Shown here piece after piece: positions 1-60,384 of a stretch of 64,000 bases of DNA. The position numbers and the translations under genes were made by a program. Numbering within the stretch: position 1 is the first letter of the stretch; every line of letters starts with the position of its first letter. This stretch comes from Acidobacteriota bacterium (GTDB taxonomy: Bacteria; Acidobacteriota; Polarisedimenticolia; Gp22-AA2), in assembly GCA_046758905.1 (NCBI GenBank), contig JBHIBC010000001.1, positions 32,343 to 96,342 of the forward strand, read 5' to 3'. The notes beneath the pieces are model-generated. The model was not told the DNA's origin. It saw only the letters and a list, made by a program, of their open reading frames with translations, and did not search any database.

Positions 1-1741
1 CCTGCTGATCCTCGCCGGCGTCACGCTGGCGCTCGCGGTGACCTACGGACGGCGGGACGAGCCGCAGACCGAGATCACCATGGCGCCCGCCGCCCCGGCC
101 CCGGAGGCGGACGGTCCGGTGGTCGACCAGGCCGAGACGTTCGAGATCAGCGGGACCCGGGAGGGCCGTCCGGCCTTCAGCCTCCGGGCCCGGAGCGTGA
201 CCGGCTACGCCGGAGAGCGCAAGCTGCTCGACGGGGTGGAGCTGTCGATCCACGACGAGCAGGGTGAGTCGATGCGGGTCACGGGCCGGACGGGCCGGTT
301 CGACGCCTCGGCTCGTCGCGCGCAGGTCTCCGGAAACGTCGTCGTCAAGACGACCGACGGCCTGTCCCTGCGCACCGGGACCCTGTACTACGACAGCGAC
401 CGGGACATGATCTTCACGGCGGACGAGGTGGTCTTCAGGGTGGGCGAGATGGAGGGGCGGGGGCGGGGCCTGAACTACCTGGTGGCCGAGCGTCAGGTGA
501 AGATCCCGGACCGGGTCACCCTGCGGGCGGCCGCGGGAGAGGGAGGCCAGGGCCTGACCGTCACCGCCGGCGACATGGTGGCGCGGCTGAAGGAGGGCAC
601 CGCTGCGTTCACGGGGGACGCCCGGCTCCGGCGCGACCGCGACGTCCTGCGGGGGCACTACATCCGGCTCACCTTCGACGCGGGGCACCGGCGGGTCACG
701 GGACTGAGCGCCTTCGGCGAGGTCAGCGCCACGGTGGGGCCCGAGATCGGGGGCCGCTCCAGCGAGCTGCGCGCCGACAGCCTGACCGCCCGGTTCTCCG
801 GGGAGTCCGGGGCGATCGACGAGGCCGACGCCTCCGGCGAGTGCCGCGTGATCAGCGGGCCCTACCGCTCGCGCAGCCGCACGGCGCGCTACCTCGGCGA
901 GGCGGGCCGCATCGAGCTCCGGGGCGATCCCGTGGTGCTGACCGACCGGGACCGGATAGCGGCCCAGGAGATCGACCTGCACCTCCATTCCGAGGCGCTG
1001 GAGGCGCGGGGGGACGTCCGCACGGTGACCCTCCCGGGAGGGCCGGGGTCCGGGGCGGTGGCGCCGGGGTTCGGTGCGGGGTCGGCGATGTCCTTCCAGT
1101 CCGCGCGGCTGCGGGTCGAGCAGCGGGAGGGCCTGGCGGTCTATTCGGGATCCGCCCGCGCCTGGCAGGAGGGGAACAGCATCCAGGCCGACGAGATCGT
1201 GATCGACCGGGCCGCGCGGCAGCTGCGGGGCCGGGGACGGTCCATGGCCCGCTTCACCCAGCCGGGACCCCCGCGGCCCGGCCGCGCGGCGCGCCCGGCG
1301 GTCACCGCGATCAGCGCCCGCAGCCTGGTCTTCGACGACGCCGCGGGCGTGGGCGCCTTCCGGGGCAACGTGCGCCTGACCCGCGGCGAGGCCACCCTCA
1401 CCGCCGACGCCATGGACGCCTACCTGATGGAGGAGGGGGGCCGGCGCGTCCTGGAGCGGATCGTGGCCACGGGCTCGGTCGCCGTGAAGCAGGGGGAGAG
1501 CTTCGGCACGGCCCGGCGGGCGGAGTACCTGAGCCGCGAGGAGGTCCTGATCCTGCAGGACGAGGAGGGGCTGGCCGAGGTCGTCGACGCGGCCACGGGG
1601 CGCACCATGCGGGGGCGAACGTTGACTTTCGATCTGGCGGGCGATAGGATTCTCACTGAATCCGCGACTGGACGGACACGGATCACGCTGACGCCCGAGG
1701 GCAAGGACATTCCCTCCGTTGAACCGAAAACTCCTCATTGA
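1..1741 (+). CDS. LptC/LptA (OstA)-family LPS transport periplasmic protein, 5' partial
   Basis: The reading frame is open to the window edge. The N-terminal [12 protein letters not shown] segment looks like a membrane anchor. Repeated OstA/LptA-like beta segments follow. It sits directly upstream of lptB-rpoN-hpf, as in canonical lptC-lptA-lptB-rpoN-hpf loci. Confidence 0.5.
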
Positions 1742-2492
1742 GGGCCTCGCCAAGAGCTACCACGGGCGCCCGGTCATCCGCGACATCGACATCCAGGTTC
1801 GGAGCAGCGAGGTGGTCGGCCTCCTCGGGCCGAACGGGGCCGGCAAGACCACCACCTTCTACTGCGTCGTCGGCCTCGTGCATCCGGACGCCGGGCGCAT
1901 CCTCCTCGGGGGACATGATGTCTCCCGCCTGCCGATGTACCTGCGGGCGCGCAGCGGCATCAGCTACCTCCCGCAGGAGTCGTCGATCTTCAGGAAGATG
2001 ACGGTCGAGCAGAACCTGGTCGCCATCCTGGAGACGCTCGACATGCCGCGGGAGGAGATCCGCGAGCGGACCGCCGCGGTCCTGGAGGAGCTGAAGATCA
2101 CTCACCTGGCGCGCAGCCCCGCCTACAACCTCTCGGGGGGCGAGCGGCGCCGCGCCGAGATCGCCCGGGCCCTGGTGATCTCGCCCTCGTTCATGCTCCT
2201 GGACGAGCCGTTCTCGGGGATCGACCCGATCGCGGTTGCGGACATCCAGAAGATCATCTATCAATTGAAGTGCAAGGGGATCGGGCTGCTCATGACCGAC
2301 CACAACGTGCAGGAGACCCTGAGGATCTGCGACCGGGCGTACATCATCGCCGAGGGGCGGATCTTCCGGAAGGGCAGCCCGGACCAGCTCGCGGCCGACC
2401 CCGAGGTCCGGGAGATCTACCTGGGGGCCAACTTCAGGCTGGTGGGGCAGGAGCCGGTGGAGGTCCCTCCGGGGGCCTTCCCGGCGGACTGA
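1719..2492 (+). CDS. lptB: LPS export ABC transporter ATP-binding protein LptB
   Basis: Walker A motif [15 protein letters not shown] signature LSGGERRR and Walker B LLDEP are present. It has the conserved position upstream of rpoN. The start overlaps the upstream gene stop. Confidence 0.85.
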
Positions 2493-2525
2493 GGCGCGGG
2501 GGGGTCCGCCGCGGCGGGGGAGACG

Positions 2526-4019
2526 ATGGCGCTCGAGCAGAAGCTGAGCCTGCGGATGGCGCAGAGGCTGATCATGACGCCGTCCCTGCAGCAGGCCATC
2601 AAGCTGCTGCAGATGACCAAGCTCGAGCTGCAGGAGGAGAACAACCAGGAGCTGACCGAGAACCCGCTGCTCGAGGAGCTGCAGGAGGTCGCGGAGACGT
2701 CGTCCGAGACCGACAAGACGGAGGGCGGCGAGGAGGAGACCTCGGCCCCCTCGCCCGCCGAGGCCGGCGGGGCGGAGTCGGCGGAAGCCGACGGGGGCCC
2801 GGCGGAGGATAGGGAGCGCGACTCCTTCGACGAGATCGATTACGAGTCGTACTTCCAGGACTACATGGACCTCTCCTACGCGCCGCGTGCGAGCTCGGAG
2901 GAGATCGAGACGCGGCCGCTGGAGAACGTCCTGAGCAAGCCGCAGAGCCTGGCCGACCACCTCCTGTGGCAGCTCGACATGAACATCACGACGGCGCGGC
3001 AGAAGGAGATCGGCCGGGCCATCATCGGCAACCTCGACGACGACGGCTACCTGCAGGCCACGCTGGAGGAGATCGCCGCCATGGGCCCCTGGCCGGTGGA
3101 GGAGGTCGAGCGCACCCTGCACGTAATCCAGGACTTCGACCCGCCCGGCGCGGGGGCCCGCGACCTGAGGGAATGCCTGCTGATCCAGCTCGCTTACCAC
3201 GACATGGAGGGCACGCCGGCCGAGACCATCATCAAGGAGCACATGGGCCTCCTGCAGACGCGCAGGTTTCGGGATCTGGCGCAGGTGCTGGGTTGCGGGC
3301 TCGAGGAGGTGAGGGAGTACGTCGAGACCATCCGCCACCTGGACCCCAAGCCGGGCAGGAAGTACAATTACGGGAGCAACACCTACGTGGTCCCGGACGT
3401 CTTCGTCGTCAAGGTCGACAAGGGCTACACCATCGTGCTGAACGAGGACGGGCTTCCGCGCCTGCGGATCAGTCCCTTCTACCGGCGGATGATCGATCGC
3501 GGCAATACGCAGGTATCGCGGGAGACGCGCGAGTACGTGCGCGAGAAGTTCCGCTCCGCCTTCCGTCTGATCAAGAGCCTCGAGGAGCGCCAGCGCACCA
3601 TCTACAAGGTGGCCCGAAGCATCGTGAAGCACCAGCAGGCGTTCCTGGACTACGGCTACGAGCACCTGCGCCCCCTGATCCTCAAGAACGTCGCCGACGA
3701 CATCGGGATGCACGAGTCCACCGTCAGCCGCGTGGTGAACCAGAAGTACATGCACACCCCGCGCGGCCTGTTCGAGATGAAGTTCTTCTTCCACTCCAGC
3801 ATCAGCTCGACCCTCGGGGAGGACGTGTCCTCCCTGACCGTGAAGGAGCGGATCAAGAAGGTCGTCGCGGAGGAGGACCCGAAGCATCCCCTGTCGGATG
3901 CGGCCATCGTTCAGGTCCTGAGCCGGGAGGGGCTGCGGATCGCGCGGCGCACCGTGGCCAAGTACCGCGAGGAGCTGCGCATCCGATCGTCGAACGAGAG
4001 GCGCCAGGGATTCCGTTGA
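2526..4019 (+). CDS. rpoN: RNA polymerase sigma-54 factor
   Basis: The N-terminal region I (LSLRMAQRLIMTPSLQQAIKLLQ) is followed by an acidic linker. A C-terminal RpoN box (ARRTVAKYR) is present. It follows lptB as in canonical loci. Confidence 0.9.
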   Translation: MALEQKLSLRMAQRLIMTPSLQQAIKLLQMTKLELQEENNQELTENPLLEELQEVAETSSETDKTEGGEEETSAPSPAEAGGAESAEADGGPAEDRERDSFDEIDYESYFQDYMDLSYAPRASSEEIETRPLENVLSKPQSLADHLLWQLDMNITTARQKEIGRAIIGNLDDDGYLQATLEEIAAMGPWPVEEVERTLHVIQDFDPPGAGARDLRECLLIQLAYHDMEGTPAETIIKEHMGLLQTRRFRDLAQVLGCGLEEVREYVETIRHLDPKPGRKYNYGSNTYVVPDVFVVKVDKGYTIVLNEDGLPRLRISPFYRRMIDRGNTQVSRETREYVREKFRSAFRLIKSLEERQRTIYKVARSIVKHQQAFLDYGYEHLRPLILKNVADDIGMHESTVSRVVNQKYMHTPRGLFEMKFFFHSSISSTLGEDVSSLTVKERIKKVVAEEDPKHPLSDAAIVQVLSREGLRIARRTVAKYREELRIRSSNERRQGFR

Positions 4020-4032
4020 GAAGGAGTTCGCG

Positions 4033-4590
4033 ATGAACATCCTGTTCACGGGCAGGAAGGCCTTCCTCGACCGCTCCCTGAAGGCGTTCGCGGAGGACAA
4101 GCTCGGCAAGCTCGAGCGTGTCGTCGACGAGGTGCTGGAGGCTCACGTGATCCTCAAGGTCGAGAAGCACCGGCACCAGGCGGAGATCCTGCTCAAGACC
4201 CGGACCAACACGCTCGCCGCGCGGGCGGAGGCCGTCACGTTCCGCGAGGCGATCGCCGACTGCGTGGACCGGCTTCTGGCGCAAGCCAGGAAGCGGAACG
4301 CCCGCTTCAAGCAGAGACGCCGGCGGCTGCCGACGGGGGCCTCCACCCGGCGCGGCGCGGCGGCGCTCGCCCTCCACCCCGGCCCCGGCGAGCCGGCCCG
4401 GGACGAGCGGCCCCGGGTGATCCGGATGGGGCGCATCCCGGCGAAGCCGATGTCGCTCGACGAGGCGCTCCTCCAGGTGAGGGGCTCGCGCGACCCCTTC
4501 CTCGTCTTTCTCAACGCCGAGTCGCAGCAGTTCGCGGTGCTGTTCCGGCGGTCCGACGGCCGCTACGGCCTGGTGGAAGCGGAGCCCTGA
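4033..4590 (+). CDS. hpf: ribosome hibernation promoting factor (long HPF/RaiA family)
   Basis: An S30AE-family N-terminal domain is followed by a C-terminal extension. It lies immediately downstream of rpoN, which is conserved synteny. Confidence 0.85.
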   Translation: MNILFTGRKAFLDRSLKAFAEDKLGKLERVVDEVLEAHVILKVEKHRHQAEILLKTRTNTLAARAEAVTFREAIADCVDRLLAQARKRNARFKQRRRRLPTGASTRRGAAALALHPGPGEPARDERPRVIRMGRIPAKPMSLDEALLQVRGSRDPFLVFLNAESQQFAVLFRRSDGRYGLVEAEP

Positions 4591-5750: not shown

Positions 5751-7410
<1,660 letters not shown>

Positions 7411-41930: not shown

Positions 41931-41960
41931 TTGACGCGATCCGGTCGGGCCCCCTAACAT
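41931..41960 (+). promoter_or_regulatory. sigma70-like promoter TTGACG-N18-TAACAT, with the lptFG ATG about 8 nt after the -10 (leaderless-type)
   Basis: The hexamers and spacing were read from the sequence. Confidence 0.4.
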
Positions 41961-41967
41961 CGATGCG

Positions 41968-44685
41968 ATGAAGCTCCTCGGGGCTCTGCGGCCCGACCGC
42001 CTCTGGAGATACATCTTCGGGGAGATCCTGTCTCCCTCTTTGCTGGGGCTCGGGGTGTACGTGCTCGTCTTCCTCATGAACGCCCTGTTCGAGCTCGCGG
42101 AGCTGGCCATCAAGAAGGACCTGCCGCTCCTTACGGTCGGGCGCATCCTGTTCTACTACCTGCCGAGGGTGCTGGTGCTGACGACCCCGATGGCGATCCT
42201 GCTCGGCGTCCTCGTCGGCATCGGGCGCCTGAGCACGGATAGCGAGATCGTCGCGCTGAGGGCGGCGGGGGTGAGCTACTGGAAGGTCCTCTACCCGGCC
42301 CTGGTGCTCGGCCTGATCGGCTGGGGGTTCGGCAGCTACCTGATGCTGCAGGTGGAGCCCGAGGCCAACTACCGGCGTCGGAGCATCACGACCCGGCTCG
42401 CCTATTCGGCCGACCCGCGGCGCGAGATCAAGCCGCGCGTCTTCTTCGAGGAGATCCCGGGGATACTCCTGTACGCGGACGAGGTCCATCAGGGCGGGGA
42501 TTTCCTCGAGAAGGTCTTCATCCATCAGACGCGCGAGGGGGGCGAGGAGCTGACCACCGTCGCCCGTCGGGTCCAGATCGACTACGACCGCGAGCAGGGA
42601 GTGGCGTTCTTCTACATGGAGTCGGGGCTCAGCCACAGCGTCGATCCGGACGACCCGGAGAGCTACCACGTCAGCCAGTTCGAGCGGCAGATGCTCCGGC
42701 AGGAGCCGGACGAGGCGTTCCGGATCAAGAGCAGCCTGCTGAGCCGTCCCTCCCCTAGGAACTGGCGCGAGCAGAACCTGAGCGAGCTGGCACGCTCGAT
42801 CCTGCGGGCCGGCGCCATCACCCACGAGGAGACGCGCCGGAGGGTGATCGGCACCCTGTTCGCGATCGTTCACGAGAGGTTCGCCCTGCCGGTCGCGTGC
42901 CTCGTCTTCGCGCTGCTCGGCGTCCCGCTCGGGATCATGAACCGGCGCGGCGGCAAGGCCTCCGGATTCAGCCTCAGCATCGCGATCGCCATCCTCTACT
43001 GGATCCTGCTGTCGACCGGCGAGGGGCTGGTCAAGCAGGGCAGGCTGTCCCCCTTCGTGGGCCTGTGGGTCGGGAACGCCCTGCTCGGGGCGCTCGGCGT
43101 CGTGCTCTTCCTCCTGCGGGAGCGCACCGAGAGCCTGCAGATCTCCTTCCTGGTGCCCGCCCGGCTGCAGCGCGCCCTCGCGGCGCTGAGGCGTCGCGAG
43201 GAGGACCAGCTCGACGCCCGCCGGCTCAGGGCGCTCGAGGTCGTGCCGGAGGCGGTGCGGCCCCCGGAGTTCGCGAGGGTCCGGGGGGGGCGGCGCTCCT
43301 CGACCCGGAGGAGCCGGCGGGCGGCGCGGCGCCGTGGTATCCGGGCCGGGGGCGCTCCGAGCGGGACGCTGTGCCTGGTCCCCTCCGTCGATCCGGAGGC
43401 CGGCGGGAGCGGCGGGTCCGATGATCTGGCGCCCGTCGAGCCGGGGGCGGTCGGCCGGTCCCGGACGATACGGGTCGGGCTGCTCGCCGGAATCGCGGTG
43501 CTGGCGGGCCTCGCGTCCATCTCCTTCAGTCCGTTCCTGCTGGTCGCGATCACGCTCCTGGCTCTCTTCCTGGTCTTCAGCACCACAATGGACCGCTACG
43601 TCCTGGCCCGGTACGGGACCGTGCTCGCCGGATGCCTCGCGTCGCTGTTCACGCTCGTGGCTGTCTACGAGTTCATCCAGATCATGGACGAGCTGGTGGA
43701 GCGCAGCCTGCCGGTCGGCCTGGCGCTGAGCTATCTCAAGTACCGCAGCCCGTGGATCCTGGCGCAGATCCTGCCGATGTCGTCGCTGGTGGCGACCTTC
43801 ATGACGTTCGGGGCGATGTCGCGGCTCAACGAGGTCGTGGCGCTCAAGGCGAGCGGGACGAGCATCTATCGCCTCTCGATGCCGGTCGTGGTCGTGGCCG
43901 TCGCGCTGAGCACCCTGGCCTACGTCAACTACGACTACCTGATGCCGCACGCGAACCGGAAGGCGCGGCAGGTCAAGGACGTGATCAAGGGGAAGACGCC
44001 CCGGACCTACCGGGTTCAGAAGGAACGGTGGGTGTTCGGCGAGCAGGGCCGGCTTTACAACTTCGCCACCTACACGCCGCCCCACTTCCCGGTCCTGCCG
44101 GCCGCCGGCCGGAGCGGCACCTTCCAGGGGTTCAGCGCCTACCGCCTCGACCCCGAGACGTTCCAGATCCGGCGCCGGGTTCACGCCAGGAACGCGGTCT
44201 ACGACACGGATCACTGGGTCCTCCGCGACGGGTGGATCCGCGAGTTCCGGGACGGGCGGGAGTCGTTCGAGGCGTTCGCCGAGAAGCGATTCGACTTCCC
44301 CGAACGGCCGGCCTACTTCGTGGGTGAGTGGAAGAGCCCCCAGCAGATGACCTTCGCCGAGCTCAAGGGCTTCGTCCGCGACCTCGACCGCCGGGGGTAC
44401 GACGTCCAGGAGCTGGCCGTCGATCTGTACGACAAGTCGGCCATACCGCTGGTGTCGCTGACGATGGTGGTGCTCGGGCTCCCCTTCTGCTTCCGGATGG
44501 GACGCCGCGGCTCGCTGTACGGGATCGGCGTCGCCATCGTGCTGGCGCTGCTCTTCCTCGTGACTTTCTCCGCCACCAATGCGCTCGGCGGCGTCGGGCT
44601 CGTCCCCCCGTTCCTCGCGGCGTGGGCCCCGAACATCCTGTTCGCGGGGAGCGGCGTCTACCTACTCCTGCGGACCTCGACCTGA
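41968..44685 (+). CDS. fused LptF-LptG LPS export permease (two YjgP/YjgQ modules in one 905-aa ORF)
   Basis: The N-terminal module has the LptF/G pattern (YIFGEILSP...). A second module begins at an internal MDRYVLARYG (ATG ~43588). The two are joined by a ~150-aa Arg/Gly-rich linker with no stop. The alternative frames are junk. Confidence 0.65.
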   Translation: MKLLGALRPDRLWRYIFGEILSPSLLGLGVYVLVFLMNALFELAELAIKKDLPLLTVGRILFYYLPRVLVLTTPMAILLGVLVGIGRLSTDSEIVALRAAGVSYWKVLYPALVLGLIGWGFGSYLMLQVEPEANYRRRSITTRLAYSADPRREIKPRVFFEEIPGILLYADEVHQGGDFLEKVFIHQTREGGEELTTVARRVQIDYDREQGVAFFYMESGLSHSVDPDDPESYHVSQFERQMLRQEPDEAFRIKSSLLSRPSPRNWREQNLSELARSILRAGAITHEETRRRVIGTLFAIVHERFALPVACLVFALLGVPLGIMNRRGGKASGFSLSIAIAILYWILLSTGEGLVKQGRLSPFVGLWVGNALLGALGVVLFLLRERTESLQISFLVPARLQRALAALRRREEDQLDARRLRALEVVPEAVRPPEFARVRGGRRSSTRRSRRAARRRGIRAGGAPSGTLCLVPSVDPEAGGSGGSDDLAPVEPGAVGRSRTIRVGLLAGIAVLAGLASISFSPFLLVAITLLALFLVFSTTMDRYVLARYGTVLAGCLASLFTLVAVYEFIQIMDELVERSLPVGLALSYLKYRSPWILAQILPMSSLVATFMTFGAMSRLNEVVALKASGTSIYRLSMPVVVVAVALSTLAYVNYDYLMPHANRKARQVKDVIKGKTPRTYRVQKERWVFGEQGRLYNFATYTPPHFPVLPAAGRSGTFQGFSAYRLDPETFQIRRRVHARNAVYDTDHWVLRDGWIREFRDGRESFEAFAEKRFDFPERPAYFVGEWKSPQQMTFAELKGFVRDLDRRGYDVQELAVDLYDKSAIPLVSLTMVVLGLPFCFRMGRRGSLYGIGVAIVLALLFLVTFSATNALGGVGLVPPFLAAWAPNILFAGSGVYLLLRTST

Positions 44686-45600
44686 TCCCCCATCCTTGCG
44701 TCCCGCCAGGAAGAGCGCGCGCTCGGCCTCGTAGCGGACCGATTGCGCGGGATCGAGGCGCGCGATCGCCCGGAGCTCCGGCTCGACCTCGCCCCGCTCC
44801 GGCCAGGAGGCGATCGCCGTCACAGCCCTCGCCCGGACGGCGGCATCCTTGTCGTTGCGGGCGCGCTCGATGACCGCCGCGAGGGTGCCGCGCGCCTCGT
44901 CGGGCCGTTGGTCGAGAACGGTCCCGGCCCCGTCCCGGAAGATCTGCGCGATCAGGTCCAGGGCTTTGAGGCGCAGGGCGCCCGACGGGTCGGAGAGCAG
45001 GGGGAGCAGCCGGACGAACAGGTCCGGCCGTCCGGCCCTAAGCCGCAGGATCTCCTCCAGGGCGGTCTCGACTCGGTACGGGTTGTCGTCCTCCAGGAGC
45101 GACACGAGGCGGCCCAGCTGGCTGGCCGGAGGCTGACGCGCGATGTCGACGAAGGAGCGGACCGCGTCGAGGATGATCGACGGCCCTTCCGCGGGGAGGG
45201 TGAAGCGTCCGGACGGTCCCCGGAGGAGCGCGTAGATGTCCCGGTTCTTCTCCTTGTTCCGATTCACCCCCTCGTACGGCACCAGGAACAACAGCTCGTC
45301 CTGCCCGTCCGGAAAGACGATCGGCTCGGTGCTCCGCCTGCGGTTGAAGTTGAACTCCCTGAACGCGATCCGAAGCGACGGGGCCGGAGGCTCTCCCTTC
45401 AGGGTCTCCACCAGGTCGACGATTGCAAACCGCAGCGCCCCCTCGCGCACCCGGGCGTGCACGACGAGCTCCGAGCGCGCCACCATCTGGAAGAGATTCA
45501 GCTCCTTCCCCTCGCCGGCGCGGGCGGTCCCGGCCGCGCCGGTGAGCGCGGCAGCGCAAGCCGCCGGCAGGACGATCGTCCTCCGGAGGCGCGGGTTCAT
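44662..45600 (-). CDS. secreted HEAT/ARM-like repeat protein
   Basis: A signal peptide is present. The C-terminal half has HEAT-like repeats (VRLLPLLSDPSGALRLKALDLI, DAAVRARAVTAI). It is ATGA-coupled to the upstream gene. Confidence 0.45.
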   Translation of the reverse strand: MNPRLRRTIVLPAACAAALTGAAGTARAGEGKELNLFQMVARSELVVHARVREGALRFAIVDLVETLKGEPPAPSLRIAFREFNFNRRRSTEPIVFPDGQDELLFLVPYEGVNRNKEKNRDIYALLRGPSGRFTLPAEGPSIILDAVRSFVDIARQPPASQLGRLVSLLEDDNPYRVETALEEILRLRAGRPDLFVRLLPLLSDPSGALRLKALDLIAQIFRDGAGTVLDQRPDEARGTLAAVIERARNDKDAAVRARAVTAIASWPERGEVEPELRAIARLDPAQSVRYEAERALFLAGRKDGGSGRGPQE

Positions 45601-48600
45601 CCCGGGCTCTCCTCGCGCAGCTCCTCGAGCCTGCGCCGGAGCCGCGGCTGCTCGGGCTCGATCTCCAGGGATCGCCGCATCGCCGCGAGCCCTCCCTGAA
45701 GGTCCCCCGCCCGGATCAGTGCTTCTCCCAGGAGCGCCTGCAGCTCAGCCGAGCCGGGCGCCGCGGCGCAGCCGCGGGACAGCAGCTCGATCGCGCCTGT
45801 GGTCTCCCCGCGCGCCATGAGGGCGCGGCCGAGGGCCGCGTAGCCCCGGGCGTAGCCCGGGTCGACCTCCACGGCGCGCCGCAGGGCGCTCTCCCCTTCC
45901 TCTGCGCTTCCCCGCTTCAGCAGCGCCAGGCCGAGGTTATGGTAGGCGTCCGCGTAGCCCGGGTCGAGCTGGACCGCCTTCCGGTAGGCGGCGATCTCCT
46001 CCTCCGCGAGGCCGAGCCGGCCGTAGACGGCGCCGAGGTTGTTGTGCGCCGAAGCGTGCGAGGGGTCGAGCTCGATGGTCCGCTCGAGCTCGCGGCGCGC
46101 TTCCTGGAGCCGGCCGAGCATGTAGAGCAGCCCGCCGTAGTTCGAGCGCACGTCGGCGTTGTTCGCGTCGCGGCGCAGGGCGTTGCGGAACTGCCGCTCG
46201 GCCTTCTCCAGATCCCCCTTCTCCTCGTACATGAGGGCGAGGTTGCTGTACGACCCGGCGAATTCCGGGTCGGCCTCGATCGCTCGGCGGAAGGCGGCGA
46301 TCGCCTCGTCCGGGCGTCCCTCCCGCTTGTGGATCAGGCCGATGTTGTTGTAGGGCTCCGCGTAGTCGGGGTCGACCTCCACCGCGCGCCGGAACAGCCG
46401 GAGCGCCTCGTCGGTTCGGCCCAGGCGGTCGTAGAGCAGGCCGAGGCTGTTGTGCGCCTCGGTGAAGTTCGGCTCGTATCGGAGCGCCCGCTCGAAATGG
46501 GCCTTCGCCTCCTGCAGTCTCCCCTGCTCCATCCGGATCGTGCCCAGCAAGTTCTCGGCCTCCTTGGACCGGGGGGAGCTCTCGAGGAGTTCGCCGAGAA
46601 CGGACGCGGCCGCGTCGTACTGCTTCATCGCGAGGCGGGCCCTGGCGATGTTGATGCGGGCGATCGCGAGGTCCTCGGATCGCTCGATGGCCCGCTCGAA
46701 TTCGCCGATCGCCTCCTCGTACCGCCCCATCCGCAGGTGCAGGATGCCGCGATTGTTGTGGGAATTGGCGGTGTCCTGGCGGAGGTACCCGAGCGATTGC
46801 AGCTTCTCGCGGATCCGGCGCTCCCCTTCCGGATCCCGGGGTATCGGACCGGCCGCGCGGCCGTCATCGGTGCGGATCGCCGCCGTCGCGCCGCCCTCGT
46901 AGGTCTCGCGGTAGGCCACCGGGTGCCGATCCAGGAAGTCGGACGAGAAGGCCTCCATGATCGGACGCCCGTCCATGTCCTCGGCCACCGGCAGCCCGTA
47001 CAGGGCCAGAACCGTGGGGGTGATGTCAAGGACGGAGGCCTCCCGGAGGCGATGGCCCGATCGGAAGGGGGGCCCGTGGAGGATGACGATGCCGTACTTC
47101 CGGTGCCAGTCGGCCGCCTGACCGAAGCCGATGCGCGAGTCGGTCAGCGGCCGGTTCTCGCCGGTGCGGAACCCGTGATCCGAGCAGACGATGACCGCCG
47201 TGTCGGGCCCGGCCTCCTCCACCAGCCTCCCGACGATGGCGTCGGCGTGGCGGTAGTAGCGCTCGACCGTGCTCCCGAACAGCCTCGCCGCCCTGCGGCC
47301 GATCCCCTCGAGGGCCGGAGGCGCGTACGGCATGAACAGGTGCGCCACGGTGTCGGTCCCCTCGAGGTAGAAGGCCAGGAAGCGGGGCTCGAATCGCTTC
47401 GCCAGCGCGACGGCGGCGCGGGCGTAAGTGTCGCCCCCGGCCAGGACGGTCTTGAACTCGTCCACGAGCCTCGCCTCGTCCGGGGACAGCGGGCCGTCCA
47501 CCGACCCGAGGCGGATGTAGCGCAGGAGCTCCCGCCTGCGGATCGTCTCCGGCCGCACCCTCAGCGACGCGACCAGCCCGCCCGCGTCGGGGGGGTGCAC
47601 CATCCCCTCCCCCGTCGCCTCGACCTTCAGCCGCGGCCCGGAAAGCTGATAGGCGACCCGGTCGGTGACCACGAACCCGTTCACCGGCTCCGCCGGGAAG
47701 GTGGCCCACCATCCGACCACCCCGACCTCGACGCCGCGCTCGCCCAGGATGTTCCAGATCGCCTTGACCTTGCGGAGGGTGGAGGTGACGGGGACGTGCT
47801 CCCCCTCTCCGTCCACCGAGGCGACGAAGTCGATGATCCCGTGCCGCCCCGGGAGCACCCCGGTGGCCACGCTCGTCCACACGACCGGCGACAGCATCGG
47901 GGTGATCGTGCGCAGCCGGCCGCGGACGCCGCTCCGGGCGAGACGCGCCAGGTTCGGAACACGGCCCGAGGCGATCAGCGGGTCGATGATGTTCCAGTCC
48001 GCCCCGTCGAGCCCGATCAGCAGCACCTTCATTCCGGGCACGCACGGGGTGTCCGCCGCGGCGCTCGTGAAGCCCGCGCGGATACTCACCTGCTCGATGT
48101 CGCAGGAGAGGAGCACGAGCCCGGCCGGGCGGAAGCGCCGGTCCAGGTGCCGCGCCAGCGCGGCGCGCAGCTCCTCCTTGCGGGACCCGGAGATGTCGGA
48201 GTAGGAGGACGAGCCGATCTCGGTGCGCAGCCCCTCCTCGGCCCACCGGGCGATGGCGTCGCGCTCGCGCGCCGGACCGGCGGAGCTGTGGACCTCCAGC
48301 ACGCGGTCGGCATCGACGCGGTAGCGCAGCGTCGCCCGCGCCACCACCTCGGTCCCCTCGCGGGTGACCACGGGGGCGTCCTCCCCGACGAGCAGGGACA
48401 GGGTGGCCCCCTCCCCCGGATAGAAGGAGAGGCGCAGGACGCCCGGGGGCACCAGGTGCCATCCGGCGCGCGCCACACGCGGCTTCACAGGGAGGATGGC
48501 GGAGTCCAGGACGGCGATCCCGTCGGACGGCACCGTCCTGCGGACGCCCCCCGCCAGCCACACGGCGGCCGCCAGGAAGCTCACCCCGAACGGGATCCTG

Positions 48601-48626
48601 TGCCTCCGCAGAAACTCCAGGCTCAT
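45597..48626 (-). CDS. large multidomain protein: N-terminal membrane-anchored region, alkaline-phosphatase-superfamily (type I phosphodiesterase/nucleotide pyrophosphatase-like) domain, ~12 C-terminal TPR repeats
   Basis: The AlkP-family motifs are VLLIGLDGADWN and VIVCSDHGF. The TPR consensus (W-LG-Y / A-F-A-P) repeats across the last ~400 aa. Confidence 0.6.
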   Translation of the reverse strand: MSLEFLRRHRIPFGVSFLAAAVWLAGGVRRTVPSDGIAVLDSAILPVKPRVARAGWHLVPPGVLRLSFYPGEGATLSLLVGEDAPVVTREGTEVVARATLRYRVDADRVLEVHSSAGPARERDAIARWAEEGLRTEIGSSSYSDISGSRKEELRAALARHLDRRFRPAGLVLLSCDIEQVSIRAGFTSAAADTPCVPGMKVLLIGLDGADWNIIDPLIASGRVPNLARLARSGVRGRLRTITPMLSPVVWTSVATGVLPGRHGIIDFVASVDGEGEHVPVTSTLRKVKAIWNILGERGVEVGVVGWWATFPAEPVNGFVVTDRVAYQLSGPRLKVEATGEGMVHPPDAGGLVASLRVRPETIRRRELLRYIRLGSVDGPLSPDEARLVDEFKTVLAGGDTYARAAVALAKRFEPRFLAFYLEGTDTVAHLFMPYAPPALEGIGRRAARLFGSTVERYYRHADAIVGRLVEEAGPDTAVIVCSDHGFRTGENRPLTDSRIGFGQAADWHRKYGIVILHGPPFRSGHRLREASVLDITPTVLALYGLPVAEDMDGRPIMEAFSSDFLDRHPVAYRETYEGGATAAIRTDDGRAAGPIPRDPEGERRIREKLQSLGYLRQDTANSHNNRGILHLRMGRYEEAIGEFERAIERSEDLAIARINIARARLAMKQYDAAASVLGELLESSPRSKEAENLLGTIRMEQGRLQEAKAHFERALRYEPNFTEAHNSLGLLYDRLGRTDEALRLFRRAVEVDPDYAEPYNNIGLIHKREGRPDEAIAAFRRAIEADPEFAGSYSNLALMYEEKGDLEKAERQFRNALRRDANNADVRSNYGGLLYMLGRLQEARRELERTIELDPSHASAHNNLGAVYGRLGLAEEEIAAYRKAVQLDPGYADAYHNLGLALLKRGSAEEGESALRRAVEVDPGYARGYAALGRALMARGETTGAIELLSRGCAAAPGSAELQALLGEALIRAGDLQGGLAAMRRSLEIEPEQPRLRRRLEELREESPG

Positions 48627-54676: not shown

Positions 54677-56244
54677 TCGATGGTCGATGGTGGCTTGCTG
54701 CTGATGTCGTAGACGACGCGGTTGATCCCGGGCACTGAATTGACGATGTGCGCGCTCACCCTGGCCAGGAAATCCTCCGGGAGGCGCGCCCAGTCCGCGG
54801 TCATGAAGTCGTCGGTGGTCACGGCGCGCAGAGCGAGCACGTTCTCGTAGGTGCGGTCGTCGCCCATGACGCCCACCGACTTGACGGGAAGGAGCACCGC
54901 GAAGGCCTGGGCGGTCTCCTCATAGAGGCTCCGCCCGGACCGGCCGGTCGCGGAGCGCAGCTCGGAGGTGAAGATGGCGTCGGCGCGCCTCAGGAGGGCG
55001 AGCCGCTCCGCGGTCACCTCGCCCAGGATGCGCACCGCCATCCCCGGCCCCGGGAACGGGTGCCGCGCGAGGATGCGGGACGACAGGCCCAGACGGCGCC
55101 CCACGGCGCGGACCTCGTCCTTGAACAGCTCCCGCAGCGGCTCCACCAGCTCGAGACGCATTCGCTCCGGCAACCCGCCCACGTTGTGGTGCGTCTTGAT
55201 CACCGCCGAGGGCCCCCTGAAGGGCGTCGACTCGATGAGATCCGGGTAGAGCGTCCCCTGGGCCAGGAATCCGACCGGGCCGACCCTGGCGGCCTCCTCC
55301 TCGAACACCTCGACGAACGCGCGGCCGACGACCCGCCGCTTCTCCTCGGGATCGAGCACTCCGCGCAGCGCCTGCAGGAACCGCCGAGAGGCGTCGACCG
55401 CGCGGACCGGCAGGTGGTAGGTCTCGGCGAAAGTGTCCACCACCTCGCGGGCCTCGTCGAGGCGGAGCAGGCCGTTGTCGATGAAAAGGCAGATGAGCCG
55501 GTCGCCGATCGCCCTGTGGATCATCAGCGCCATGACCGCGGAGTCGACCCCTCCGCTCAGCCCGGCGATCACCCGGCCCCCGCCGACCCGGTCGCGGATC
55601 GCCCGAACCGATTCCTCCAGGAACGAGGCGATGCGCCAGCTCCCCGAGCAGCCGCAGATCCGGTACAGGAAATTCCTGAGGATCTCCGACCCATGTCGGG
55701 TGTGCGAGACCTCAGGGTGGAACTGGATGCCGTAGAGCCGGCGGGACGCGTCCGCCATCGCGGCGCAACGGGACGAGGTGCTGCGCGCGATCACCGAGAA
55801 GCCGTCGGGAGGCTGCCGGATCTCGTCCCCGTGGCTCATCCAGATCGGCTGGGCCGCGGGGGTTCCCTCGAACAGCGGCGACCCCCCGAGGACCTCGAGG
55901 TCGGAGGGGCCGAACTCGCGTCCCTCGGAGCGCTGCACGCGGCCCTGCAGCACGTACGCCATCAGCTGCATGCCGTAGCAGATGCCGAGCACCGGCACCC
56001 CGAGGTCGAAGACCCCGCGGTCGAGCCGCGGCGCGCGCGGGGCGTACACCGAATCGGGGCCGCCCGAGAGCACCAGGCCCTTGGCGCCGCGCGCCCGCAA
56101 CGCCTCGACGGGCGTGTCGAAGCGCACCAGCTCGCTGTAGACCTTGAGCTCGCGGATCCGCCGCGCGATCAGCTGGCTGTACTGCGAGCCGAAGTCGAGC
56201 ACCAGGACGACCTCGCGGCGGGCGGGAGCGGCCGGCCTGCTCAC
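54667..56244 (-). CDS. guaA: GMP synthase (glutamine-hydrolysing)
   Basis: A GATase domain ([12 protein letters not shown]...GICYGMQ), an ATP-pyrophosphatase P-loop (SGGVDSAV) and the C-terminus [14 protein letters not shown] are present. It uses a GTG start. The upstream half of track ORF 54667..57753 is an out-of-frame artefact. Confidence 0.9.
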
Positions 56245-57266
56245 GCGGGCCTCGTCGCGCCCCGGGCCACGCGGTGGATCAGCCGCTCGAGCGCGTGCGC
56301 CGGATCCCGGGACCCGGCTCCCTTCAGCTCCCGGTCGGCGCGCAGGCACAGCGCGAGCGCCTCCCGGAGCCGGCCGACGGGGACGTCCCCCACCTCTGCC
56401 CGCATCCGCTCGACCCGCCCGGGGTCGATCCCGTAGGTCGACTGCAGCTCGCGCGGCGGGATCCTTCGCCCCGCCGCCGAGCGGGCCTTGAGCGCCATGC
56501 GCACGTACCAGGAGAGCGCCCCCAAGAGGGGCAGGGGGTCCTCCCCCTGTCGCAGCAGGCCGCGCACCGCGGCGACCGCCTCGCCGCCACGGCCGCGCAC
56601 CATCTGCCGTGCGGCGGCCCAGACGTCGCCGACGCGCGGCACCCCCGCCAGGATCTCCAGATCCTCCGGGCGGACCGGGCGCGGCGGGCCGATGGCGCTC
56701 ATCAGCTTCTGGAGCTCGGAGTCCAGCCGTCCGAGCCCCTGCCCCTGGAAGCCCGCCGCGATCGCCTCGGCCAGGTCGGCCGTCACGCCGTAGCCCCGCG
56801 CCTGCAGCCTCTCGCGCACCCAGCCCGGCATGCGCGCCTCGCCGGGCGGGGCGCACTCGACCAGCGTCGCCCCCCGCTGCAGAGCGCGCCACATCGCCCT
56901 GCGGCGGTCGAAGCGGAGGTCGCTGAACATCAGGCAGGTCTTCGGGTTGGGCCGATCGAGGTAGCGCTCCAGGGGATCGGCCGACTGCAGCCGCACCGCA
57001 TCCGCGTCCCTGACCACCACCAGCCTCCGCCCGCCGCCCATCGGATAGGTGGCGGCGATGTCGAGGACCATCTCCAGCGTCGCCTCGTCGCCGTGCACCA
57101 GGTCGCGGTCGACCGCCGCGGACCCCTCGGCGAGCACCGCCCGCTCCAGCAGCCGCACCGCCTCGTCGTGCAGGAAGGGCTCCTCCCCGTCGAAGCAGTA
57201 GACCGCCTCGACCCGCCCGCGCAGCAGCGACTGCTGGAACTGCGGGAAGCTCATGCGGACGGGCAT
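56241..57266 (-). CDS. holA: DNA polymerase III delta subunit
   Basis: It shows a HolA-like length and pattern. It has the conserved position between lptE and downstream genes (leuS-lptE-holA synteny). Confidence 0.65.
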
Positions 57267-57272
57267 CGCGCC

Positions 57273-57857
57273 TCAAAACCCCTCGAGGATGGAGGTGACG
57301 ACGCTGCGGGCGAAGTCGGTGGCGACGTCGTCGATCGCGATGATCTCCTGGTCCAGGCCGAGCAGAGGCGTCTGGGGCACGTCGTACTGCTGCGTGAACA
57401 GGAAGTGGTCGTCCTCCCACAGCACCTCGTCGGTGGCCACCACCGTCAGGACCACGCGCGCCGTGAGGAGGATCTCGTAGCGCGTGGCCCGGCCCTCCTC
57501 GTCGATGCTGACCGGCGTGGAGGTGTAGCTCAGGATCGCCCCCCGGAGGACCGCGTCGGCCCCCTCCTCCCCCGGGAGGATCCGTCGCCGGCCGCGGGTG
57601 CTGAACTCGTCGATGATATGCTCGGTGATCCGTTGCTCGAGCTCGGGCCGGGCGGTCCGGTTGGCGAACGGTGGGATCCCGATCGATCTCAGGTCGGGCG
57701 GCAGGACGTTCGAGTGACCGGTCAGGTGGTAGCCGCAGCCGAGGGCCGGCCACAGCAGCGCCGCGAGGGCGAGGGAGGCCGCGGCGCCCGCGCCGCGGGC
57801 CTCGGCCCCGGCGCAGAACGGGGGGCGGGCCCGGCGTCCTCGATCCATGTCTCGCAT
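57273..57857 (-). CDS. lptE: LPS-assembly lipoprotein LptE
   Basis: A lipobox (LGC|GYHL) follows the signal peptide. It is in the conserved leuS-lptE-holA order. Confidence 0.6.
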
Positions 57858-57879
57858 TATAGCGTCGCTGGCGCCGCTC

Positions 57880-60384
57880 TCACCCGACGACGATGTTGAG
57901 CAGCCTCCCCGGCAGGTAGATCGTCTTCCTGAGCTCGCGCCCCTCGAGGTGGGCGGCGACCCGGCGATCGGCGCGGGCCAGCTCGACCACCTCGGCCTCG
58001 GGGAGGGACGCGGTCACGCGCAGGCGGCCGCGCACCCTCCCGTTGACTTGGACCACGAGCTCCACCTCGTCCTCCTCGAGCCAGCGCGGCTCGGGCCGCG
58101 GCCACGGCTGCCCGAGGGCGCTTCCCGTCCCGCCCAGCGCCGCCCACAGCTCCTCCGAGACGTGCGGCGCGAACGGCTGCAAGAGGAGGGCCAGGGTCGA
58201 CCCCAGCTCCTTGAGGTAGGGGGCGTCCCCGTCCCGCCACCCCCTGGCGAACTCCTGACCCGCGTTGAGCAGCTCCATGGCCGCGGCCACGGGCGTGTTG
58301 AGGTGCAGGCGCCGGTCGATGTCGACGGTGACCCTGCGGATGGTCCGGTGGATCTTCCGCCTCAGGGCGGCGCGACGCTCGTCCCCGGCGCCGTCGCCGG
58401 GCCCGAGCCGCGCCGCGGCGGCGAGCTCGCCCGAGCGGGGCATCAGCAGCCGCCACACCTTCTCCAGGAAGCGGAAGCAGCCCTCCACGCCCCGCTCGTC
58501 CCACTCGAGGTCCTTCTCGGGCGGCGCCGCGAACAGAGTGAACAGGCGCGTCGTATCGGCGCCGTAGCGGCGGATCAGGTCGTCGGGGTCGACGATGTTC
58601 CCCTTCGATTTCGACATCGCCGTCCCGCCCTTGAGCACCATGCCCTGGCAGAGGAGGCTCTTCACCGGCTCGCCCGTCGACGCCAGGCCAAGGTCGCGCA
58701 GCACCTTGGCGAAGAACCGGCAGTAGATGAGGTGCATCGTGGCGTGCGTGATCCCGCCGATGTACAGGTCGATCGGGAACCACGAGGCGATGATGTCCGG
58801 CGCGAACGGAGCGCCCTCGTTGCGGGGGTCGCAGTAGCGGTAGAAGTACCAGGAGGAATCGAAGAAGGTGTCCATGGTGTCGGACTCGCGGCGCCCCGGG
58901 CCGCCGCACCTCGGGCAGGGGGCCCTGAGGAACGATTCGTCCCGCGCCAGGGGGGAGCCGCCCGCCCCGGTCAGCGGCACCTCCTCCGGGAGCACGACCG
59001 GCAGATCCTGGTCGGGGACCGGGACCGTCCCGCACCCGTCGCAGTAGATCACCGGGATCGGAGTCCCCCAGTACCGCTGGCGCGATATCCCCCAGTCCAG
59101 CAGCCGGTAGTGGACCGAGGCGCGCGCGTACCCGCCCGACTCGCCCGCCCGGAGCATCTCCCGGCGCGCCTCTCCGGAGGTCCGCCCCGCGTAGGGTCCC
59201 GAGCGGACCAGCACCCCGTCCTCGACCATCGCCGCCTCCGGCTCGTCGTCGCTCGGCGCCGCGCCGGGAGGGACGATCACGGTGCGGATCGGGAGGGAGT
59301 ACCTGCGCGCGAACTCGTAGTCGCGCTCGTCGTGCGCCGGGACCGCCATGACGGCGCCTGTGCCGTACCCCATGAGGACGAAGTTGGCGACGAAGACCGG
59401 CAGCGTGTCCCCGCTATAGGGATTCCGGACCCTGAGCCCGGTGTCCACCCCGGCCTTCTCCACCGGCTCCTCTCCCGGCGCCGCCGGCGCGCGCCGCTCC
59501 TGCTCGCGCAGGAAGGCCTCCACCCGGCGCCCGCGGGGCGACCCCCGCGGGACGCGCGACAGGATCGGATGCCCCGGGGCCACGACGCAGAACGTGGCGC
59601 CGTAGATCGTGTCGAGGCGCGTCGTGAACACCTCGACCGAGTCGGGCGCCCCGCCGCCCGGCGCGCCGACCACCGGGAAGCGGACCAGCGCCCCCTCGCT
59701 GCGTCCGATCCAGCTGCGCTGCATCGATCGGACCCGCTCCGGCCAGCCCGTCAGGCGGTCCAGCTCGGCGTCGAGCTCCTCGGCGTACGCGGTGATCTTC
59801 AGGAACCACTGATCGAGCTCCTTCTGCCCCACCGCACAGTCGCAGCGCCAGCAGCGGCCCCCCTCCACCTGCTCGTTGGCGAGGACCGTCCGGCACGAGG
59901 CGCACCAGTTCACCGCCCGCCGGCTGCGGTAGGCCAGCCCCCGCTCCAGCATGCGCAGGAAGAACCACTGGTTCCAGCGGTAGTAGTCGGGACGGTGCGC
60001 GGCGATCTCCCGGTCCCAGTCGTAGGACAGCCCCAGCCGGCGCAGCTGCCGCCCCATGGCGGCGATGTTGTCATCGGTCCACCGGGCCGGGTGTACGCCG
60101 CGCTGGATCGCCGCGTTCTCGGCGGGCAGGCCGAAGGAGTCCCATCCCATCGGGTGGAGCACCTGGCGGCCGCGCATGCGGTGGTAGCGGGCCACCGCGT
60201 CGCCGATGGCGTAGTTGCGGACGTGCCCCATGTGCAGGCGGCCCGAGGGGTAAGGGAGCATCTCGAGACAGTAGAAATGGGCGCCGCGCGGCTTGGCCGG
60301 CGCCGCGAACGCGCGCGCCTGCCGCCAGCGCTCCTGCCAGCGCCGCTCGATGGTGTCGAAGAGCTCCCTGTAGTCACCCCGCAT
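57880..60384 (-). CDS. leuS: leucyl-tRNA synthetase
   Basis: HIGH (YPSGRLHMGHVRNY) and KMSKS (MSKSKGN) motifs are present over 834 aa. Confidence 0.95.
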   Translation of the reverse strand: MRGDYRELFDTIERRWQERWRQARAFAAPAKPRGAHFYCLEMLPYPSGRLHMGHVRNYAIGDAVARYHRMRGRQVLHPMGWDSFGLPAENAAIQRGVHPARWTDDNIAAMGRQLRRLGLSYDWDREIAAHRPDYYRWNQWFFLRMLERGLAYRSRRAVNWCASCRTVLANEQVEGGRCWRCDCAVGQKELDQWFLKITAYAEELDAELDRLTGWPERVRSMQRSWIGRSEGALVRFPVVGAPGGGAPDSVEVFTTRLDTIYGATFCVVAPGHPILSRVPRGSPRGRRVEAFLREQERRAPAAPGEEPVEKAGVDTGLRVRNPYSGDTLPVFVANFVLMGYGTGAVMAVPAHDERDYEFARRYSLPIRTVIVPPGAAPSDDEPEAAMVEDGVLVRSGPYAGRTSGEARREMLRAGESGGYARASVHYRLLDWGISRQRYWGTPIPVIYCDGCGTVPVPDQDLPVVLPEEVPLTGAGGSPLARDESFLRAPCPRCGGPGRRESDTMDTFFDSSWYFYRYCDPRNEGAPFAPDIIASWFPIDLYIGGITHATMHLIYCRFFAKVLRDLGLASTGEPVKSLLCQGMVLKGGTAMSKSKGNIVDPDDLIRRYGADTTRLFTLFAAPPEKDLEWDERGVEGCFRFLEKVWRLLMPRSGELAAAARLGPGDGAGDERRAALRRKIHRTIRRVTVDIDRRLHLNTPVAAAMELLNAGQEFARGWRDGDAPYLKELGSTLALLLQPFAPHVSEELWAALGGTGSALGQPWPRPEPRWLEEDEVELVVQVNGRVRGRLRVTASLPEAEVVELARADRRVAAHLEGRELRKTIYLPGRLLNIVVG

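Follow-up and report, generated by a model that had tools for sequence, protein, structure and literature searches.

One gene of an Acidobacteriota bacterium very probably encodes LptF and LptG as a single chain, joined by a connector with a predicted membrane hairpin

The window analysed here is a stretch of 64,000 nucleotides from an Acidobacteriota bacterium (contig JBHIBC010000001.1), and at 41968..44685 its forward strand carries a single open reading frame (ORF) for a fused LptF-LptG permease, called lptFG below. The gene begins with ATG and comprises 905 codons plus a stop; the ORF listing of the window contains no in-frame stop within it. An identical protein (P0001, 905 amino acids (aa), 100% identity) is held by NCBI under the name 'LptF/LptG family permease [Acidobacteriota bacterium]' and comes from a 109-kb contig of an Acidobacteriota metagenome-assembled genome (MAG). 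On the evidence described below, it is very likely that lptF and lptG are genuinely fused in one gene, giving a single-chain LptF/LptG heterodimer.

The lptFG protein was matched by Pfam PF03739 (LptF_LptG) in two stretches, with 517.9 bits against a cut-off of 27.9 (E = 1.7e-155). The NCBIfam models separated the two halves: TIGR04407 (LptF) scored 309.7 bits against a cut-off of 230, best over aa 12-382, and TIGR04408 (LptG) scored 327.2 bits against a cut-off of 240, best over aa 540-902. The initial annotation had described a single 905-aa frame holding two complete modules, and with one stop-free ORF and both models above their cut-offs this description holds. Using these models, AlphaFold2 (AF2) and Foldseek, the LptF module was delimited to aa 12-389 (42001..43134) and the LptG module to aa 540-902 (43585..44673), both on the forward strand like all features of the gene given here. 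Each consists of transmembrane (TM) helices 1-3, a beta-jellyroll and TM helices 4-6; the jellyroll of the LptF module is periplasmic, with its strands at about aa 166-245. The LptG module starts at T540/M541 (nt 43585/43588), in agreement with the position of about 43588 first proposed for it.

An AF2 model of the protein, built with a 106-sequence alignment, had a mean predicted local distance difference test (pLDDT) score of 86.7 and a predicted template modelling score (pTM) of 0.78. In this model the pattern of three TM helices, a jellyroll-type beta-sandwich and three TM helices appears twice, once per half. When the model was compared with the PDB using Foldseek, the significant matches (E <= 0.001) were exclusively LptF and LptG chains, from 6MJP, 6MIT, 8FRL, 5X5Y, 5L75, 6MHU and other entries, with target-normalised TM-scores of ∼0.8-0.9, and in all of the matched structures F and G are separate chains. 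The LptF half matched the LptF chains 6mit_F and 8frl_F, and the LptG half matched 6mjp_G, 6mit_G and 8frl_G with target-normalised TM-scores of ∼0.8. The residues that we take, from published genetics, to be the coupling-helix glutamates engaging LptB, LptF E84 and LptG E88 in E. coli numbering, could be located in both halves. Glu93 (motif GRLSTDSE93, codon 42244..42246) is equivalent to LptF E84, falling opposite residue 84 of K. pneumoniae LptF (7efo_F) in the alignment, while Glu622 (motif MSRLNE622, codon 43831..43833) is equivalent to LptG E88, the alignment of aa 541-902 to residues 7-358 of the LptG chain giving an offset of 534. Both E93 and E622 are invariant among the 106 aligned sequences. 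All of the sequence and fold criteria identify the two halves as LptF and LptG, and the only canonical LptF/LptG feature absent here is the separation into two genes or polypeptides.

The window DNA is GC-rich (68-80% GC) and long spurious ORFs are common in it, so a stop-free frame alone proves little. In the ORF listing, an antisense ORF of 778 aa overlaps the lptFG region, and the other two frames have one stop each in 43100-43600. The frames over the junction had been dismissed in the initial annotation as junk-like; at this GC content that argument is weakly informative, and it is the third-position GC (GC3) that instead backs the coding frame. Because GC3 stays at 0.87-1.0 in the lptFG frame over the whole linker, the linker frame is coding throughout.

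Whether the lptFG frame reflects a genuine fusion or a lost stop had been left undecided by the initial annotation, which had proposed a comparison with related genomes. When a single representative genome of each GTDB species was scanned, 577 relatives were confirmed; the best 80 of these were kept, and their junctions were judged by stop-to-stop frames together with module hidden Markov models (HMMs) built from the alignment. The junction was readable in 78 of the 80 loci, the other two being cut by contig ends. In all 78 species-representative loci one open frame runs from the last part of the LptF module through all of the LptG module, and in none of them is there a stop codon plus ribosome-binding site between the modules. 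A further ∼110 clusters at 90% identity, drawn from NCBI, JGI, ENA and Logan assemblies, are also full-length fusions; they are 770-911 aa long, range in identity from 70% to ∼36%, and carry both names, LptF and LptG, at JGI. These counts support a genuine fusion and reject the lost stop. The record titles of the loci name Candidatus Polarisedimenticolia, Thermoanaerobaculia, Holophagales and subdivisions gp7, gp11 and gp22, as well as Candidatus Acidiferrales, Acidoferrum and Angelobacter, the last three all Terriglobia. For a Terriglobia-type member, 2578 relatives were found at E <= 1e-20, and the best 120 of these are all 766-804 aa long. The LptF-LptG fusion is old and widespread in the Acidobacteriota.

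Two irregularities were noted among the related loci. The LptF module is split over two frames in L019 (∼6389-6783), L063 (∼6380-7260) and L071 (∼5973-6687), with the F/G junction in frame in each; these breaks are either assembly indels or pseudogenes. In addition, fused lptFG or lptCA genes of the Acidobacteriota type occur in records labelled Candidatus Binatia, Dormiibacterota/Dormibacteraeota or Dongiaceae (L002, L010, P0029, P0078 and P0321, with 29% identity for L010 and 51-62% for the others). Such labels probably result from mis-binning of MAGs or from mislabelling.

The connector between the modules spans aa 390-539 (150 aa), is rich in Gly, Pro and Ala and contains 24 Lys and Arg versus 12 Asp and Glu residues; a Kyte-Doolittle plot shows a hydrophobic segment of 44 residues at aa 500-543. 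It matches the ∼150-aa basic, Gly-rich joint with a hydrophobic stretch that had been seen at first inspection. In the AF2 model it begins with an amphipathic helix after TM6 of LptF (aa 398-424, ARLQRALAALRRREEDQLDARRLRALE, 43159..43239; pLDDT ∼86-89), which has a hydrophobic moment of ∼1.0 and a negative mean hydropathy and whose start is conserved among homologues. This is followed by a disordered spacer rich in Arg, Gly and Pro (aa 427-494, 43246..43449; pLDDT <50), variable in length and sequence (majority-residue fraction 0.19), with 13 Lys and Arg versus 7 Asp and Glu residues. Two further helices then complete the connector: H1 (aa 495-516, VGRSRTIRVGLLAGIAVLAGLA, 43450..43515), which overlaps the Kyte-Doolittle segment, and H2 (aa 522-536, PFLLVAITLLALFLV, 43531..43575). 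They are separated by a five-residue uncharged loop, SISFS, and a three-residue turn, FST, joins H2 to the TM1 helix of LptG (aa 540-578). The pLDDT of this helical hairpin is 56-74. Conservation is 0.69 for H2 and 0.44 for H1, compared with 0.62-0.86 for the canonical TM helices, and Pro522, which sits midway in the 44-residue hydrophobic stretch, is kept in 96 of 114 homologues. Thus the topology prediction that had been suggested for the linker, made with Kyte-Doolittle hydropathy and AF2, resolved its hydrophobic stretch into a conserved two-helix hairpin.

Because the LptF end and the LptG start are both cytoplasmic by homology, the number of membrane crossings made by the linker has to be even. 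The predicted topology is 6+2+6 = 14 TM helices, in which both halves are N-in/C-in and the linker forms an in-out-in hairpin. The three arginines that precede H1 on the linker side, the uncharged loop, and the hydrophobic cores of 15-17 residues in each of H1 and H2 fit this arrangement. A single extra TM helix in the linker was also considered and rejected, since LptG would then be inverted, with its coupling helix on the periplasmic side, and since the hydrophobic stretch is 44 residues long, has the conserved Pro at its middle and forms two helices in the AF2 model. More speculatively, H2 would pack against LptG TM1, given the short turn between them, and may sit near the lateral gate between LptG TM1 and LptF TM5. 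This gate is the site at which the LptC anchor is bound in 6MI7 and 6MIT. The idea that the hairpin substitutes for a missing LptC anchor was rejected, as the LptC-LptA protein of this organism, described below, has its own TM helix.

The hairpin is far less widely distributed than the fusion itself. At 76 of the 78 readable junctions the linker is polar and basic, 50-94 aa long, with a maximum 17-residue hydropathy <1.2 and without a hairpin; only L001 and L004, from Polarisedimenticolia (gp22), possess one. Among 106 aligned homologues it is present in 88, and the 18 that lack it include P0099-P0102 (∼50% identity over the best-matching segment). When aa 484-640 were searched against 1.84 billion cluster representatives, strong hairpin matches (E <= 1e-30) were obtained with four representatives only. 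Most of the other top matches were fusions of 750-980 aa that aligned only from the LptG start, and ordinary LptG proteins of 340-370 aa matched at E ∼1e-11 to 1e-13. A second group of fusions, 950-985 aa long (P0370, P0381, P0414, P0450 and P0367), also has two hydrophobic linker helices, with a loop of ∼20 residues, and shares the F-S-T-x-D junction before the LptG module. Because of this group, the membrane-hairpin linker either predates the 850-910 aa family or extends beyond it. The hairpin is restricted to the lineage of the window (the Candidatus Polarisedimenticolia type) and this one related group. No unfused LptG with an N-terminal hairpin, a possible origin, was found among the best 150 of 2219 hits. 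In the simplest history, a single ancient fusion would have had a polar tether, and the hairpin would have been inserted later in a branch that includes the window genome.

Genes for other Lpt components were found in the window. A fused lptC-lptA gene (1..1741, forward strand) is cut by the 5' end of the window; the full protein is P0241, of 602 aa. Its LptC domain scored 50.7 bits with TIGR04409 against a cut-off of 38, and its LptA domain scored 84 bits with TIGR03002 against 71.7. The layout is an N-terminal TM anchor, the LptC domain, ∼260 residues and the LptA domain, and both domains are retained in ∼105 clusters of ∼600 aa, down to 37% identity; the distant 918-919 aa proteins P0347 and P0349 likewise carry both. 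An AF2 model (pLDDT 84) contains a TM helix (aa 13-39), a disordered tether and an uninterrupted run of ∼38 beta-strands (aa 70-576), and matches LptC, LptA/LptH and the N-terminal domain of LptD. If the model is correct, the array would be a covalent, fixed-length periplasmic bridge. The ABC ATPase gene lptB (1719..2492, forward strand; 353.5 bits with TIGR04406 against a cut-off of 240) shares 23 nt with the end of lptCA, and lptB, rpoN (sigma-54) and hpf together occupy 1719-4590 on the forward strand. This gene order, lptCA-lptB-rpoN-hpf, matches the lptCAB-rpoN-hpf cluster of Proteobacteria. On the reverse strand, lptE (57273..57857; 67 bits with PF04390 against a cut-off of 23) is flanked by leuS and holA (56241-60384), in the same order as in E. 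coli. No separate lptF or lptG was found within the 64-kb window. From these sequences, the inner-membrane and periplasmic Lpt parts appear to be built from three polypeptides instead of five.

We weighed the genuine fusion against other explanations of the locus. If a stop had been lost, or a frameshift or assembly error had occurred, the locus would really be two adjacent genes and the linker mistranslated intergenic DNA. Indel errors do occur in MAGs, from one of which the window derives, the central part of the linker shows low complexity and little conservation, and the LptF frame breaks in L019, L063 and L071 mean that errors or pseudogenes exist in these data. Nevertheless, this reading was rejected, and has almost no probability in our estimation, given one shared frame at all 78 junctions and in the ∼110 clusters from independent assemblies, and the high in-frame GC3 throughout the linker. 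The ends of the linker are moreover conserved as protein (RERSEGLQLSLLVP..., the hairpin with Pro522, and the FSTT-DRY junction), and most homologues have Leu at the position where a separate LptG would begin. Alternatively, the gene may be fused and the proteins separate, either through an internal start at Met541 or through proteolysis in the disordered spacer. In the window gene an ATG does coincide with the start of the LptG module, and residues 427-494, predicted to be disordered, basic and exposed to the cytoplasm, would be accessible to proteases. However, Met541 is replaced by Leu in 90 of 114 aligned fused homologues, so there is no conserved internal start for LptG, and neither a sigma-70-like site nor a Shine-Dalgarno-like sequence was found before Met541, whose codon is preceded by TCTTCAGCACCACA in the window. 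An internal start as a conserved feature was rejected on these grounds. An LptG begun at residue 541 would also lose the hairpin, whose H2 matches the core helices in conservation, and the 50-94 aa linkers of most fusions in the phylum fit a plain tether better than a cleavage cassette. Production of separate chains is accordingly regarded as unlikely.

The identity of the substrate is a different question. The fused protein could be a paralogue of LptF and LptG that exports another envelope lipid or glycolipid rather than lipopolysaccharide (LPS), the LPS role of the Acidobacteriota members being predicted from sequence. Members of PF03739 are found in organisms that lack classical LPS as well, an example being the Thermotoga permease (PMC10160955). 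Against this stand the scores of both halves, which exceed the equivalog cut-offs for LptF and LptG, the conserved coupling-helix glutamates, and the remaining Lpt genes of the window: an lptB above its equivalog cut-off, lptC-lptA, and lptE in the leuS-lptE-holA arrangement, with separate lptF and lptG absent. We consider a non-LPS paralogue very unlikely.

Several points weigh against the preferred picture of a genuine fusion that yields a single-chain LPS permease with a membrane hairpin. The single chain is read from the gene, and cleavage of the long disordered linker after synthesis might still produce two chains. The pLDDT of the hairpin is just moderate and cores of 15-17 residues are short for a full membrane span, making a re-entrant hairpin possible, while the placement of the hairpin near the gate is deduced solely from its three-residue link to LptG TM1. 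To call the fusion phylum-wide is to extrapolate from the best 80 of 577 confirmed genome hits, and all of the related sequences come from MAGs, with no experimentally studied organism among them. LptD was not found within the 64-kb window.

By homology, the N-terminal half would serve as LptF and the C-terminal half as LptG, the single chain acting like LptB2FG. Two copies of LptB would bind the two coupling helices, and ATP hydrolysis would squeeze LPS from the outer leaflet of the inner membrane and hand it to the jellyroll bridge, here a fused LptC-LptA protein. ATP-dependent LPS extraction by the fused LptFG is in this sense inferred from the homology of its parts. From its design, the fusion would fix a 1:1 stoichiometry, force co-insertion of the two halves and exclude F-F or G-G pairing, much as tandem permeases such as FhuB do in other ABC transporters. 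In the connector, the amphipathic helix would be followed by the basic disordered spacer in the cytoplasm and then by the membrane hairpin, whose H2 would turn straight into LptG TM1. A more elaborate scheme, which we regard as doubtful, is a machine of three polypeptides: LptFG, LptB and an anchored LptC-LptA bridge of ∼500 residues of continuous jellyroll that would fix the jellyroll number across the periplasm. In this scheme the hairpin would be no mere tether and would instead be a built-in regulator at the LptG-TM1/LptF-TM5 gate, cooperating or competing with the LptC anchor over LPS entry and ATPase coupling.

The closest known systems are the LptB2FG(C) complexes of Proteobacteria (E. 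coli, K. pneumoniae, P. aeruginosa, V. cholerae and A. baylyi; 5X5Y, 5L75, 6MHU, 6MI7, 6MIT, 6MJP and 8FRL). These share with the window protein the HMM families PF03739, TIGR04407 and TIGR04408, six TM helices and a beta-jellyroll per half (TM-score ∼0.8), the coupling glutamates, and the lptB, lptC, lptA and lptE partners. They differ in that F and G are separate chains and genes in every solved structure, whereas here they form one chain; the 150-residue connector has no counterpart in the proteobacterial LptB2FG structures, and in the window organism LptC and LptA are fused as well. The short-linker fusions of other Acidobacteriota (Thermoanaerobaculia, Holophagales and Terriglobia-type; 765-860 aa) have the same single ORF with F before G and a basic cytoplasmic linker that opens with an amphipathic helix, at 29-40% identity to the window protein, but their polar linker of 50-94 aa has no hairpin and their junction reads F-P-N/M/R-I/L instead of F-S-T-T.

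A similar design is found in FhuB-type tandem ABC permeases, which combine two homologous halves, found as separate subunits in related systems, in one polypeptide with a cytoplasmic linker and work with two copies of one ATPase. The predicted architecture of the window protein would fit a tandem-permease layout of this kind, with modules that are N-in/C-in by homology, a basic spacer and, in the predicted topology, two hydrophobic linker helices. The likeness would be one of design only, with no homology to FhuB expected. FhuB belongs to an importer, unrelated in fold and class to the LptFG/type VI exporters, and its linker is not known to contain an additional membrane hairpin. Merged Lpt modules outside Proteobacteria have a precedent in the Thermotoga 'pABC permease', which is described as having LptF/G-, LptA- and LptD-like domains in one polypeptide (PMC10160955). 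It differs from lptFG in joining permease and bridge domains, in belonging to another phylum and in a proposed substrate that is not LPS.

The sequences of the fused proteins are already in databases under automatically given names, and the fused LptFG represents a variation on an established system. In the full-text literature searched, from which most subscription journals are missing, neither a natural LptF-LptG fusion nor a natural LptC-LptA fusion was found to be described. A phylogenomic study (PMC8871954, Genes 2022) states that lptF and lptG are 'apparently lacking in Acidobacteria' while lptB is present. The fused architecture may explain why an orthologue-group search missed the two genes, and a fusion can have this effect in orthologue-based surveys generally.

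LptB2FG is an antibiotic target and a model for lipid extraction, and structural and mechanistic work has so far been done on separate F and G. A natural single-chain LptFG in a large and abundant soil phylum would indicate that the heterodimer tolerates a covalent link from LptF TM6 to LptG TM1, and would offer a ready-made construct of fixed stoichiometry for structural work. The hairpin, if it lies beside LptG TM1, would let the lateral gate at which the anchor of LptC acts be studied in a naturally occurring variant, and the fused LptC-LptA bears on the question of the number of jellyroll modules in the periplasmic bridge. The joining of one permease to another is well known in evolution, and any role of the hairpin is a prediction.

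No Shine-Dalgarno sequence was visible before the lptFG ATG in the region examined (41931-41967). A sigma-70-like promoter match, TTGACG-18 nt-TAACAT (41931..41960, forward strand), ends 7 nt before the ATG and is the sole one near lptFG; it is a weak consensus match, one such site being found upstream of the gene against 0.2 expected in shuffled sequences. Resting on this match, the lptFG mRNA may be leaderless or nearly so. The gene stands alone among its neighbours. Its upstream neighbours, all on its own strand, are rpsA, genes for HU, a HIT-family protein, a MiaB-like methylthiotransferase and a bifunctional-nuclease-domain protein, parA and parB, and downstream, in convergent orientation, are genes for a HEAT-repeat protein and a 1009-aa protein, and ahcY. 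The 1009-aa protein (45597-48626, reverse strand) has an SPFH/Band-7 domain at its N terminus, a domain of the type I phosphodiesterase/nucleotide pyrophosphatase kind and an extended array of TPR repeats towards its C terminus, and its gene overlaps the start of the HEAT-repeat gene by 4 nt.

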